From Haliotis cracherodii (lineage: Eukaryota), in NCBI RefSeq assembly GCF_022045235.1, contig NW_027266268.1, positions 38,130,001 through 38,194,000 of the forward strand: DNA of 64,000 nucleotides, written 5' to 3'. Numbering within the stretch: the stretch's first letter is position 1; every line of letters starts with the position of its first letter. Shown here piece by piece: positions 9,572 to 21,492 of this stretch. The notes below the pieces were generated by a model. It was not told where the DNA came from, searched no databases, and saw only the letters and a program-made list of their open reading frames with translations. A program made the position numbers and the translations under genes.

Positions 9572-10201
9572 AGTAGTTTAGCACATCAGTGTAGAACCCC
9601 TCAGGATTCTGGAACCACTCAGGATTCTGGAACCAAGATGGCGGCACATCCGTTTCCGGTCACGTGACCTGCGCAGTGCATGATGGGACCCTGCGCGTGC
9701 CTCCAAGATGGCGTCGCTTCCGTTTCCGGTGGCGTGCGCCTCCAAGAGGGCGTCACTTCCGTGTCCGGTGGCGTGCGCCTCCAAGAGGGCGGCACTTCCG
9801 TGTCCGGAGGCGCACGCCTCCAAGAGGACGGCACTTCCGTGTCCGGTGGCGCACGCCTCCAAGATGGCGTTGCCTCCGTTTCCGGGGAGGAGTAGGGGAA
9901 AACCCGGAGAAGCGCCCGTCAAAGGTGAACGGGATCGACATGGAAAGAAGCGCGTCAAACATCGTTTGTGGTGGTGGTGGTGGTGGTTCTAAACATAGAC
10001 GGGGTGGCGGTGGTGAAGGGAGGGAGGGAGGGAGGGTGGTGGTGGTGGTGGTGGTAGTGGTGGTGGTGGTGAAGGGAGGAAGGGAGGGAGGGAGGGAGGA
10101 AAGGAGGAGGAGACGGGTTCATGGTGTGGGTTGGAGGGTCGTCAAAGCAAAGGAGGAAAGTTGTCTTTCGGGAGAGATGGGTGGCCCTGAAAAGGGCCGT
10201 T
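9572..10201 (+). repeat. Left TIR (630 bp)
   Basis: Reverse complement of 20913-21492; two CTCAGGATTCTGGAACCA repeats, five 39-bp units, (GGT)n/(GGGA)n tract. Confidence 0.95.
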
Positions 10202-10203
10202 GG
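10178..10203 (-). terminator. Histone-type 3' stem-loop followed by HDE-like GAAAGA (10164-10169)
   Basis: Minus strand reads CCAAC-GGCCCT-TTTC-AGGGCC-ACCCA; ~130 nt after the stop of the zinc-knuckle gene. Confidence 0.85.
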
Positions 10204-10331
10204 AAAACAAACTGGAAACTGGAAACTTGAAACGACAGGAAACGGCAGGAACACTGGAACACTGGAACACTGGAAAAACTGCAAACGATGGGACACTGGT
10301 AAAAAACAGTGGGGTAGCATGGGCCCATGCG

Positions 10332-10943
10332 TTAGTCACTTTGTTCAGATGATCTATCTTCTTCATCCTCTACTTCCATCTCATCCTCGGACTGAAGGTG
10401 TCGTCGGCGCTTTGAAGCGTGCTTTCTTGAGAGGCTTCTGACCCGTTTTCTTTTCTCTACAAGAGGTGTGATGCCCGCACGGAGTTGTGCGAGGCATTCT
10501 TTTAGGTCGAGGACATCGACGTGCACGTCTTCGATGAGATGAACCACTTGTGTCACGGGTGTCACGGGTGTCACGGGTGCCACGGATGCCACGGGTGTCG
10601 ACGTGGACGGTGTTGCTGATGTTTTCTTTCGACTGGGTTCTGGGCAATCTGCAGCGAAATGACCCAGGGCTTGACAGTTGTAACAGTGGTCCAGGCGATG
10701 GGGAGTCTTCTTTCGACTGGGTTCTGGGCAATCTGCAGCGAAATGACCCATGGCTTCACAGTTGTAACAGGGACCCAGGTTCCGATTCTCCTGCTTCTCT
10801 TGACTGTTCATCTTCAGACAGACATAGTGACGGTGACCTTGAGTGCCACACTCGAGGCATGTCACTTCAGGGCAGTACAGGTAACTGTGACTGTCGGTCT
10901 GGCACTTCCTACAACTGTATCGAACTGACATGATGGGTTTCAT
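10332..10943 (-). CDS. Four-CCHC zinc-knuckle protein (203 aa) with basic NLS-like and acidic tail
   Basis: Four CX2CX4HX4C motifs (CRKC..H..C, CLEC..H..C, two CYNC..GHFAADC); ATG at 10943 lies ~50 nt after TATAAAA (10997-10991). Confidence 0.85.
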   Translation of the reverse strand: MKPIMSVRYSCRKCQTDSHSYLYCPEVTCLECGTQGHRHYVCLKMNSQEKQENRNLGPCYNCEAMGHFAADCPEPSRKKTPHRLDHCYNCQALGHFAADCPEPSRKKTSATPSTSTPVASVAPVTPVTPVTQVVHLIEDVHVDVLDLKECLAQLRAGITPLVEKRKRVRSLSRKHASKRRRHLQSEDEMEVEDEEDRSSEQSD

Positions 10944-10989
10944 AGAATGCAGTGTGTGTGTGTGTGTGAGTGGCTTCGCTCTTGTTTTG

Positions 10990-11258
10990 TTTTTATAGGA
11001 GAGCCACTGACACCCTACCTCCTGATTGGTTCCCCAGGCAGCGCCCCCGATTGGTTCGTTTCGGGGCCTGGTCTGCACCTCGGTTTTCCAAAACGGACCG
11101 ACCCCTGTGTTTCTTTTCCATAGGAAATGGATTTTACCATGGGAGAGAAAGCACAACCCCGGTTCGACCATTCAGAGTCCCGCATGACCCGAGCACGGTC
11201 TCTGATTGGTTGACAACCCAGGCTTCGGATTGGTTCGATTTCGATCCGGTTTTTTTTT
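10990..11258 (-). promoter_or_regulatory. Promoter cassette copy 1 (four CCAAT boxes + TATAAAA)
   Basis: Homologous to 14066-14308, 18684-18985 and 20268-20581; lies directly upstream of the zinc-knuckle ORF. Confidence 0.8.
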
Positions 11259-11465
11259 ATCGGGGTGTGCATTTCGATCCGGTTTTGTTTTTTTCATCCT
11301 ACAGACCACAGAACACGACTATGGGTTTTTAAAACAAAATTTAATCCCCTCGCTCACATGAACCAACACCACAAAACAAAAAGTCACAGGATGAGGGGGG
11401 CGTCCCTGTGAATTTTGTGAACACGGGGGTATGAACGTCTGTACACTTTGAAAAAAGAAACTTTG

Positions 11466-11978
11466 TCACTTGGGGTGAACAAGACACTCGACTCTTCTCT
11501 TCCGTGCTTCTTGGGACACCAAACGTCTGTATTTTTCGTTCACTTCTCCATCAGGACAAAACACACACAAGTATTCGCAGGGGACTTTGGCGTGCTTCAG
11601 ATGTTCTTTCCAGGGTTGGTCTGTGGCTTCCCATTGGCGGAGTGCCACACCGCAGCAATAACAGGTCACACAGTCACCTTGTCCTGGATAGAAATAGCCA
11701 GCCATGGCCATGTCATACGGGGTCTGGGTCATCTGTTTAGGCCACGTTTTAAAAGATCTCAGACGTTCTTGAAATGAATCATAGTGAGGATGAGAAGGAT
11801 GACACGGGGTGTAAGAAGGAAAAGGTCCCTCCAGAATGTCACTGAGTCGCCACGTGTCGTCCCTAAAGAGGGGACGTTTTCTCGCTTCTTGTTCTCTTGC
11901 CTTTTCAGACACCCACTCGGAATCGGTGACGACATCTCGGGAGGATGACATGACATTCATAGAACGTCTTTGCTCCAT
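11466..11978 (-). CDS. Single-BIR inhibitor-of-apoptosis protein (IAP-1, 170 aa)
   Basis: RLRSFKTWP...AMAGYFY...CYCC-X16-H-X7-C BIR signature; CATAAAA upstream (~12025-12031); ATTAAA downstream (~11340-11345). Confidence 0.9.
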   Translation of the reverse strand: MEQRRSMNVMSSSRDVVTDSEWVSEKAREQEARKRPLFRDDTWRLSDILEGPFPSYTPCHPSHPHYDSFQERLRSFKTWPKQMTQTPYDMAMAGYFYPGQGDCVTCYCCGVALRQWEATDQPWKEHLKHAKVPCEYLCVFCPDGEVNEKYRRLVSQEARKRRVECLVHPK

Positions 11979-19453: not shown

Positions 19454-19778
19454 GAGGGCGACGTTTCCCGTGTCCTGCGTTCCCGTTCAAGTTCCCGTTC
19501 CAGTTCCCCGTTCAAGTTCCCGTTCCAGTTCCCGTTCAAGTTCCCGTTTGTCTACTGCTGTTGTTGTGGATGGTTCAGTCTGTTTCCGCTTCTTGTTTCC
19601 TACAAGCTTTTCTTTTTTTTTTGGACCCCACAAGTGGTGTCACGTAGGGCACCCTGATGACATACCCAGATGGTATACCCAGATGACAGCAAGTACCCCT
19701 TCGACGATCCTTGTCTTGTCATAAGCTTGGACATGATGATTCTTCTTGGACAGCAGCAGAAAAGTTTTCTTCTTTCCC

Positions 19779-19804
19779 AAAACGGCCCTTTTCAGGGCCA
19801 CCCA
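19779..19804 (+). terminator. Histone-type 3' stem-loop followed by HDE-like AAAAGA
   Basis: AAAAC-GGCCCT-TTTC-AGGGCC-ACCCA-TCTCACCC-AAAAGAC; internal copy outside the TIRs, downstream of IAP-2. Confidence 0.85.
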
Positions 19805-20267
19805 TCTCACCCAAAAGACAACTTTCCTCCTTTGCTTTGCCAACCCCACCCCCAATTTGAAAACACACACACACACAGGGCACGACGTTTGCATGGCAAC
19901 ACACAAAGTACATGACGTTCACATCGCGACACGAAGTCCATGACGTGTGCAAACTTAACGTCACGTAGGTGTATCGATCTTTCTCTATTCATCTCAATAC
20001 GACACTACTCAATACACACACACACAGGACACCACGTTTTGCCTGACCACACGCTATTCTATGCATCGTCTGTTTGAAGACATACACACACACACATACC
20101 CACACACACACACGCACACATGACATTCCGATTGGCATGGGAGTGACACACACGTACATAGGCATTCCCACGTTCATGTCTACCTATGAAGGTCCACCTT
20201 CCTTTAGCATTCAGACGACCGTCGACCTCAAAAAAAATATCAAGGCTACCCAAGAAGAAAAAAAAAC

Positions 20268-20581
20268 GGATCGAAATCGGACCAATCCGAAGCCTGGGTT
20301 ATCGACCAATCAGAAGCGGCGCTCGGGCCATGGCGGGCTCTGATTGGCCGAACCGGGGTTGTGCTTTCTCTCCCATGGTAAAATCCATTTCCTATGGAAA
20401 AGAAACACAGGGGTCGGTCCGTTTTGGAAAACCGAGGTGCTGACCAGGCCCCGGAACGAACCAATCGGAGCTGCGGCCTGGCGAACCAACCAGGAGGGAG
20501 GATGTCAGTACCACTCCTATAAAACAACAGTGGATTCGAGTGGGTCAGTGTCACTTGTAAAATTGATTCGAAAAATCAAGA
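20268..20581 (+). promoter_or_regulatory. Promoter cassette copy 4
   Basis: CCAAT boxes and TATAAAA (~20518-20524) upstream of the ATG at 20582. Confidence 0.8.
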
Positions 20582-20905
20582 ATGTCTGAAAACTGGGATC
20601 TGGAGCTAGCCTCAGTGGTGCACCCTTTGCCACTGTGCAAAGTGTGTCGCTCGGAGTTGGAGAAGAAAGAAGCAGTACCGCCATTGCCATTGCCTCCACC
20701 ATGGCAATGCGGTACATGCCAAGGGGGCCTGCCTGTGTACGCCCTTGGCACAAGGGCACGGGATGGTACATTTCAATGTGTGTACTGTAAGACCATCCTC
20801 AAGGACACCTACGTGCGGCGGTTAACGCACACCGGTAGGTGTCCTGTCAGGAGACAGATGAATGTCCACCCGTGCCTTTGCACCATGGCGTGCACATGCA
20901 TGTAA
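20582..20905 (+). CDS. Small Cys-rich putative zinc-binding protein (107 aa)
   Basis: CxxC pairs (CKVC, CGTC, CVYC) plus H..C; flanked by a promoter cassette and a histone stem-loop. Confidence 0.75.
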   Translation: MSENWDLELASVVHPLPLCKVCRSELEKKEAVPPLPLPPPWQCGTCQGGLPVYALGTRARDGTFQCVYCKTILKDTYVRRLTHTGRCPVRRQMNVHPCLCTMACTCM

Positions 20906-20910
20906 ACATC

Positions 20911-20936
20911 AAAACGGCCCTTTTCAGGGCCACCCA
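20911..20936 (+). terminator. Histone-type 3' stem-loop followed by HDE-like GAAAGA
   Basis: AAAAC-GGCCCT-TTTC-AGGGCC-ACCCA starting 5 nt after the TAA at 20903-20905; forms the inner edge of the right TIR. Confidence 0.85.
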
Positions 20937-21492
20937 TCTCTCCCGAAAGACAACTTTCCTCCTTTGCTTTGACGACCCTCCAACCCACACCATGAACCCG
21001 TCTCCTCCTCCTTTCCTCCCTCCCTCCCTCCCTCCCTCCCTTCACCACCACCACCACCACCACCACCACCACCCTCCCTCCCTTCACCACCGCCACCCCG
21101 TCTATGTTTAGAACCACCACCACCACCACCACCACAAACGATGTTTGACGCGCTTCTTTCCATGTCGATCCCGTTCACCTTTGACGGGTGCTTCTCCGGG
21201 TTTTCCCCTACTCCTCCCCGGAAACGGAGGCAACGCCCTCTTGGAGGCGTGCGCCACCGGACACGGAAGTGCCGTCCTCTTGGAGGCGCACGCCACCGGA
21301 CACGGAAGTGACGCCCTCTTGGAGGCGCACGCCACCAGAAACGGAAGCGACGCCATCTTGGAGGCACGCGCAGGGTCCCATCATGCACTGCGCAGGTCAC
21401 GTGACCGGAAACGGATGTGCCGCCATCTTGGTTCCAGAATCCTGAGTGGTTCCAGAATCCTGAGGGGTTCTACACTGATGTGCTTAACTACT
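20913..21492 (-). repeat. Right TIR (580 bp)
   Basis: Inverted copy of the left TIR with four instead of five 39-bp units and few substitutions. Confidence 0.95.

Follow-up and report, generated by a model that had tools for sequence, protein, structure and literature searches.

A probable two-segment Polinton in the abalone Haliotis cracherodii, with histone-type 3' ends behind its small genes

Polintons or Mavericks, which include the adintoviruses, combine terminal inverted repeats (TIRs) of the AG type, a 6-bp target-site duplication (TSD), a protein-primed DNA polymerase (pPolB), an rve integrase, an A32-like ATPase, a protease and a double jelly-roll capsid with accessory genes of the IAP and LxCxE types (PMC8502044); the LxCxE "Oncoid" and IAP genes of adintoviruses are already described in section 3.2 of that source. 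Here, two families of elements in the genome of the abalone Haliotis cracherodii are compared with this pattern. One, A, is represented by an 11,921-bp insertion at 9572-21492 of a window of 64,000 nucleotides (contig NW_027266268.1, 38,130,001 to 38,194,000, forward strand); the other, B, was found elsewhere in the same genome. All of the hallmarks just listed recur in the pair, but unlike in Polintons pPolB lies on A and the integrase and morphogenesis genes lie on B, each set bounded by its own TIRs. At a probability of roughly 0.8, A and B are the two segments into which one Polinton has divided, each dependent on the other and likely complementing it in trans.

Other described systems resemble this arrangement in part. 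The bidnaviruses and Drosophila Vesanto virus are likewise segmented, with an adintovirus-type PolB on one segment and shared terminal inverted repeats, but these are single-stranded DNA viruses with a parvovirus NS1 and a single jelly-roll capsid (PMC8363768, 10.1101/2024.03.25.586562), whereas in the abalone pair the capsid is of the double jelly-roll type, an integrase is present and each segment integrates by itself. The polB-less and non-autonomous polintons are, like A and B, partial Polintons needing functions in trans, and they sit beside, or presumably need, a complete helper (10.1101/2025.02.07.637071); in contrast, each abalone half supplies what the other lacks, with no complete form found among the scored loci. 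Multipartite viruses also divide essential functions among separately propagated segments of unequal copy number (PMC11721093), but A and B would be a double-stranded DNA animal case with a germline fossil record. Segmented bidna-like viruses and polB-less polintons have thus been described, with no complementing pair in the sources consulted (PMC8097293, PMC11131425 and 10.64898/2026.10.13.758929 among them). The supplementary maps of Starrett could show partial elements. A search of titles and the beginnings of abstracts, with subscription journals, Repbase and supplements outside its scope, returned neither a bipartite Polinton nor histone stem-loops in a Polinton.

How a virus genome passes from the unsplit to the multipartite state is not settled. 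A route through complementing defectives would be directly studiable here, as the halves, their gene-poor palindromic offspring and the deletion scars occur in one genome in dozens of dated copies. Partial Polinton copies are usually filed as decayed, and a screen requiring all five core genes within 20 kb (10.1101/2023.08.22.554363) is blind to split Polintons.

Both ends are present in 62 of the 79 regions examined. Of these, 47 contain pPolB only (A), 9 are B, 3 are gene-poor palindromes with neither module and 3 have both modules; two of the last three belong to an unsplit family of its own (41-55% identity), and the third is an A copy into which a foreign 4.9-kb element has inserted. As the regions were chosen by searches with A genes or B genes, the ratio of A to B is not a census. 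The two gene sets are disjoint, and only in combination do they supply pPolB, the integrase, the ATPase, the protease and the two capsid proteins. Of the 48 A copies, 0 have an integrase, ATPase, protease or capsid gene of their own (the single integrase match belongs to the foreign insert), so that A alone, with the integrase absent from it and present on B, is not a complete Polinton. The "minimal replicon" proposed for the window in a first-pass annotation is therefore half of a pair, the integrase, ATPase, capsid and protease being on B elements with the same ends. A and B each insert as a unit with a 6-bp TSD, which is perfect in 45/48 A copies, in 8/9 B copies and in 3/3 palindromic derivatives.

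The B family came to light among 20 stem-loop loci without a tie to a pPolB match, 19 of which resemble the window element at 67-96%. The first B copy (G000:C3:3673686-3684033) has the terminal sequence of young A copies yet encodes an ATPase and an integrase. Members are 8-10.6 kb long, lack the polymerase and share the ends of A; a small open reading frame (ORF) occupies one strand, and the opposite strand carries the ATPase, three further ORFs, the integrase, a membrane ORF, the minor capsid protein, a pX-like ORF, the major capsid protein (MCP) and the protease. Pfam identifies the ATPase (Pox_A32) and the integrase (rve plus chromo), while the protease and minor capsid assignments come from a weak Pfam match (E 0.04), position and likeness to the unsplit relative. 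The predicted model of the MCP (pLDDT 74) matches double jelly-roll capsids (Sputnik at E 8e-15, also iridovirus and PBCV-1), which identifies it, at the level of a predicted fold, as a double jelly-roll protein; a PDB sequence search with the B capsid alignment gave no match, and the NS1 family was absent from the ORFs scanned with Pfam. All five core frames are unbroken in 5/9 B copies.

The two families are tied together by their ends, which are interchangeable. Over the first 260 nt, 6/9 B copies are 99-100% identical to some A copy, and five of the nine are nearer to an A than to any B (two tie and two are nearer to a B), while the ends of the unsplit family are 49-55% identical to those of A or B, 55% being the maximum. 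In a tree of 135-nt ends the B ends are interspersed with those of A; B requires 8 changes, against a shuffled mean of 8.6, and is monophyletic in 0/200 bootstrap trees. Within 25 kb of a pPolB lie just 2/57 family MCP loci and 1/56 integrase loci, and at both of the places where pPolB and a B gene are close the pPolB element is bounded by its own ends and TSD; a capsid gene, by comparison, lies no more than 12 kb away at 38/56 integrase loci. These counts take one position per locus from lists of 95, 59 and 66 loci, with extra pieces and families at 30-39% excluded. No unsplit copy of the lineage occurs among at least 92 pPolB, at least 57 MCP and at least 56 integrase family loci.

The core enzymes are under purifying selection in both A and B, as estimated by simple counting on shared variants with a fixed transition bias, the numbers for B being small. 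Nonsynonymous and synonymous variants number 118 and 111 in the polymerase (omega 0.38), 8 and 14 in the integrase (0.20), 8 and 11 in the ATPase (0.26), 7 and 8 in the minor capsid gene (0.30) and 0 and 3 in the major capsid gene. The cargo is more heterogeneous. ORF107 is the most strongly constrained cargo gene (omega 0.16), followed by exon 2 of a spliced gene (0.30) and IAP2 (0.52); IAP1 (0.59, p 0.08) and exon 1 of the spliced gene (0.66, p 0.08) are borderline, and the zinc-knuckle gene ZnK (0.98), the B small ORF (1.25) and B320 (1.29) look neutral.

The features of the window element, on which the remaining comparisons depend, are as follows.

9566..9571, unstranded: left copy of the TSD AACGGG, the right copy being 21493-21498
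9572..10201, unstranded: left TIR with AGTAGT start, common to the partner B family, its inner end being the stem-loop cassette
10158..10203, minus: histone 3' stem-loop and downstream AAAGA element, about 130 nt past the zinc-knuckle stop
10332..10931, minus: zinc-knuckle (ZnK) ORF with two zf-CCHC, its first 15 or so codons in common with the B small ORF
10987..11258, minus: CCAAT-rich promoter module, copy 1
11275..11446, minus: 3' region behind IAP1, with ATTAAA at 11345
11466..11978, minus: IAP1, single BIR (Pfam), its start coinciding with the start position of B's second late ORF
11965..12302, minus: scars of the B late cassette (leader, ATPase-start stub, and ATPase-end/next-ORF-start stretch)
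12669..13851, minus: spliced "Oncoid-like" gene (exon 1 13851-13367, exon 2 13269-13037, intron 2 13036-12680)
14098..14335, minus: CCAAT promoter module, copy 2, preceding the spliced gene
14369..18602, minus: pPolB (Pfam), broken here
18678..19010, plus: CCAAT promoter module, copy 3, separating pPolB from IAP2, which are divergent
19001..19453, plus: IAP2, single BIR (Pfam)
19779..19824, plus: internal histone stem-loop behind IAP2, within 69 bp duplicated from the inner end of the TIR
20258..20591, plus: CCAAT promoter module, copy 4
20582..20905, plus: ORF107, 107 aa, Cys-rich
20911..20956, plus: histone stem-loop and downstream element, 10 nt past the ORF107 stop
20913..21492, unstranded: right TIR with ACTACT end

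The element is a single insertion with AGTAGT...ACTACT termini and TIRs of about 600 bp, flanked on either side by AACGGG. Pfam bears out the gene list of the first-pass annotation (pPolB, two BIR genes and a zinc-knuckle gene), with BIR matched twice, zf-CCHC twice within 10332-11003(-) and DNA_pol_B_2 in two of five pPolB pieces; the PF03175 match identifies the polymerase, carried by A only, as a protein-primed PolB. The window copy of this gene is interrupted by in-frame stops and by two or more frame changes, while the frame is unbroken in 21 of the 48 A copies having both ends. Genome searches gave at least 99 matches to pPolB and at least 302 to a 22-mer of the stem-loop. Most of the 55 mapped A regions agree in which genes they carry and in what order, and the conservation of the package across family copies, which had been suggested as a check, is seen in about 50 copies.

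Scars in A point to the common history of the two families. The stretch 12242-12302 corresponds to the leader of the B ATPase (90% identical), 12092-12151 to a short stub of the ATPase start (77%) and 11965-12037 to the ATPase end and next-ORF start (82%). Three scars counted around IAP1 are present in 45, 45 and 43 of 48 A copies, in 9/9 B copies and in 0/2 unsplit relatives. The 3' region of IAP1 (11275-11446) likewise recurs 3' of the protease gene in 9/9 B copies, and the B genes follow the order seen in the right part of an unsplit Polinton of this genome. From the scars and this order, A and B would share descent by complementary deletions, and both halves likely derive from one unsplit element. 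By analogy with established Polinton biology, pPolB made from A copies would replicate both linear DNAs from their shared ends, the B integrase would insert both A and B, and the B capsid module could package either. A more specific reading, in which A and B are the segments of a bipartite abalone polintovirus, that is, an integrating double-stranded DNA virus with a double jelly-roll capsid, an origin by complementary deletion and histone 3' processing of its small accessory mRNAs, is put forward tentatively, at somewhat less than even odds.

Variant forms were also seen. Near-perfect palindromes of 4-10 kb, built from the small-ORF arm of B (L152-153, L158, L159-160 and L169; for example, G000:C9:377243-387161), include three with defined ends, which have the shared termini and perfect TSDs and lack the core genes; the palindromes resemble defective genomes of the snap-back type, inserted in trans. 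Three older B copies (L180, L182 and L187) differ in the arrangement of their arms, with protease sequence on the other arm, next to the small ORF. The loci L077-078 (G000:C78:61.505-61.517 Mb) and L111-112 have TIRs lengthened to 1560 and 1000 bp, with the ZnK gene or ORF107 on both arms, one arm having been copied from the other. The foreign 4.9-kb element inside an A copy (G000:C1:41919256-41924196) has 903-bp TIRs without the AGTAGT start, and its coding content is limited to an integrase and an ATPase that are 32-36% identical to those of B; its end has 43 genome matches.

The 3' ends of the small genes represent a quite different aspect of the pair. Three genes of the window element had been annotated with histone-type 3' ends, and this stands: three matches to Rfam Histone3 (RF00032) exceed the gathering score (35.6-36.8 bits), and a stem-loop pattern found none in 300 shuffles of the element and none in the rest of the window. 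Like the 3' ends of replication-dependent histone mRNAs, these have a 6-bp stem, a TTTC loop, AAC before and ACC(C/A)A after. Host core histone genes end in AAC-GGTCCTTTTCAGGACC-ACCAA...CAAAAGAA and score 34.3-38.8 bits, comparable to the element ends, AAC-GGCCCTTTTCAGGGCC-ACCCA...C(A/G)AAAGAC; the stems differ by one compensated pair (C-G for T-A), and the purine-rich downstream element AAAGA sits at the spacing seen in host H2A, H2B, H3 and H4 genes. Unlike histone ends, the element stem-loops belong to a mobile element and lie 3' of four ORFs that do not encode histones. The host repeat itself, of about 4.25 kb, lies at G000:C37:1-9500 (H2A, H2B, H3 and H4; H1 is not among the ORFs listed).

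The cassette stands 3' of 53/53 gene hits for ZnK, 52/54 for IAP2, 57/57 for ORF107 and 20/22 for the B small ORF, in most copies 10-330 nt past the stop, with the consensus stem-loop on the sense strand and no AATAAA or ATTAAA between stop and stem-loop. The spliced gene, IAP1 and the B late cassette have ATTAAA instead; pPolB, like IAP1, has no stem-loop. The four short intronless ORFs (three in A, one in B) are probably cut by the host U7/SLBP machinery rather than polyadenylated. Histone RNAs processed by U7 and SLBP are biased to S phase or the oocyte. If the four RNAs are processed in this way, the same bias would follow. The full histone 3'-end signal on the non-histone genes of a mobile element would be a rare natural test of the exclusivity of the pathway.

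That the stem-loop is instead mainly a transcription stop shielding terminal origins, or a passenger of the TIR, with no cell-cycle meaning, is somewhat unlikely and would be compatible with a split genome. The stem-loops face outward at both A ends and mark the inner edge of the TIR, and the third copy is the 69-bp duplicate. Yet that duplication placed a stem-loop internally, behind IAP2, and the feature is missing behind the B late cassette, where the arm starts just past the stem-loop and ATTAAA precedes it in 9/9 copies. Moreover, across 182 cassettes the stem, the loop and AAAGA are 98-100% constant, while upstream positions vary between cassettes. Three observations nonetheless weigh against histone-type processing. 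Two of the four stem-loop ORFs, ZnK and the B small ORF, look neutral (0.98 and 1.25, as above); the conservation could be hitch-hiking, since the stem-loop lies inside the TIR; and the host U7 small nuclear RNA was not found, Rfam giving only two sub-threshold hits. Candidates from a U7 pattern were rejected (45 hits against 51 in a control, with five multi-copy hits lacking a 3' hairpin), and duplex energies computed from them were discarded as circular. The unsplit relatives have no stem-loop.

For the promoters, a likeness to histone genes is not supported. A module of about 270 bp with 4-5 CCAAT boxes occurs in four copies in the element and had been taken for histone-like promoters, but against the host histone unit the top blastn alignment spans 21 nt (E 0.11), and a histone-promoter origin was rejected for want of a significant match.

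A and B could instead be ordinary non-autonomous deletion derivatives, each served by an unsplit parent that was missed, or that this individual lacks although the population has it. Several points count for this alternative or against a split Polinton. The locus lists are lower bounds, as only about 95 candidates were scored in each genome search, of 450, 377 and 2053, so that an unsplit copy could be missed; a decayed region (G000:C45:62.37-62.39 Mb) contains fragments of B and of A separated by 17 kb, with undefined ends; and polB-less polintons are reported beside complete ones in a butterfly (10.1101/2025.02.07.637071). The tree of ends is short, with mostly weak support (9/55 branches starred), and what is known of A and B comes from integrated genome copies. 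A search of viral contigs with pPolB and the TIR gave no match, which is uninformative on co-replication or packaging. However, the loci scored include no unsplit copy although the top hits are young (97-100%), each half maintains by purifying selection enzymes that parasites of a complete helper would not need, and both layouts recur in older subfamilies. A missed parent is accordingly an improbable source of the pattern, and the split Polinton is preferred.

Equally doubtful is the cascade that the first-pass annotation envisaged, in which an Rb-binding, E1A-like protein drives cells into S phase and the stem-loop cargo is then switched on. In its favor, the gene is spliced and has ATTAAA, as had been annotated (two introns; ATTAAA at 12475(-)), and exon 2 is constrained (omega 0.30); in addition, 36/50 copies have the motif LVCDD (LxCxD; 13014-13028(-) in the window) followed by an acidic stretch and an adjacent CxxC pair, and an intron-retaining form could be a regulated minority product. 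But the second intron, of 357 nt with GT-AG borders, contains both LVCDD and the CxxC...CxxC finger, and the spliced product ends in SSGRP. Intron 2 is skipped in 22/39 annotated models, the finger is kept in 16 (just one of them with LxCxD) and one model differs; the GT-AG joint appears in contigs of three of four runs (presumed RNA) and in none of the genomic copies searched. At the motif position L is found in 36/50 copies, M in 10, and 4 are unreadable or changed, and the retained intron shows no purifying selection across the LxCxD stretch (13 nonsynonymous to 4 synonymous variants, omega 1.05). The acidic stretch after LVCDD lacks Ser and Thr and hence a CK2 site (S/T-x-x-D/E), a chance LxCx[DE] is present in the polymerase as well, LxCxD is missing from the zinc-finger relatives inspected in H. 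rubra, and Pfam gave no match to the E1A family. Rb binding by this protein is therefore doubtful. The second step fares no better, since the "E1A-like" gene and the stem-loop genes share one promoter module, in which a pattern search found no E2F-type site, and pPolB has no stem-loop.

It is very improbable that A and B are mobilized not by each other but by Polinton families of the genome to which they are unrelated, for although an unsplit AGTAGT-ended family (G000:C4:10.27-10.29 Mb) exists, as does a further young family whose capsid is 31% identical, the ends of the unsplit family are far less like A and B than these are like each other (up to 100%), and the leader, promoter and 3' modules common to A and B occur in 0/2 of its members.

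The unsplit Polinton itself (G000:C4:10273016-10289513) is 16.5 kb long, carries a PC4 gene and an IAP between AGTAGT ends and lacks the stem-loop; among those examined it is the nearest unsplit relative of A and B. The other, apparently young, Polinton-like family (G000:C2:46412520, C78:2331209 and 17 more loci) has a capsid 30-32% identical to that of B. A suggestion that the foreign 4.9-kb insert shares its ends with this family was rejected, 0/43 end matches lying near those loci.

Relatives of the pair occur in other abalones. Near-identical annotated proteins of the A element come from Haliotis species; H. rufescens has close annotated relatives of both A and B proteins, and H. asinina has a capsid family at 74%. 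The spliced-gene protein had 7 hits among 1.84 billion representatives, six of them named Haliotis proteins. The homologue search with ORF107 was empty, the zinc-knuckle ORF found only generic zf-CCHC look-alikes (scores below 0.9) and an exact look-up of 10 proteins gave no match. Metagenomes yielded a single capsid relative (72%), on a contig whose 2 kb do not show its gene context. Elsewhere in the window, a 22-bp tandem array at 23615-26000 and a 24-bp array with an inverted copy at 48680-51610 are unrelated to the element.

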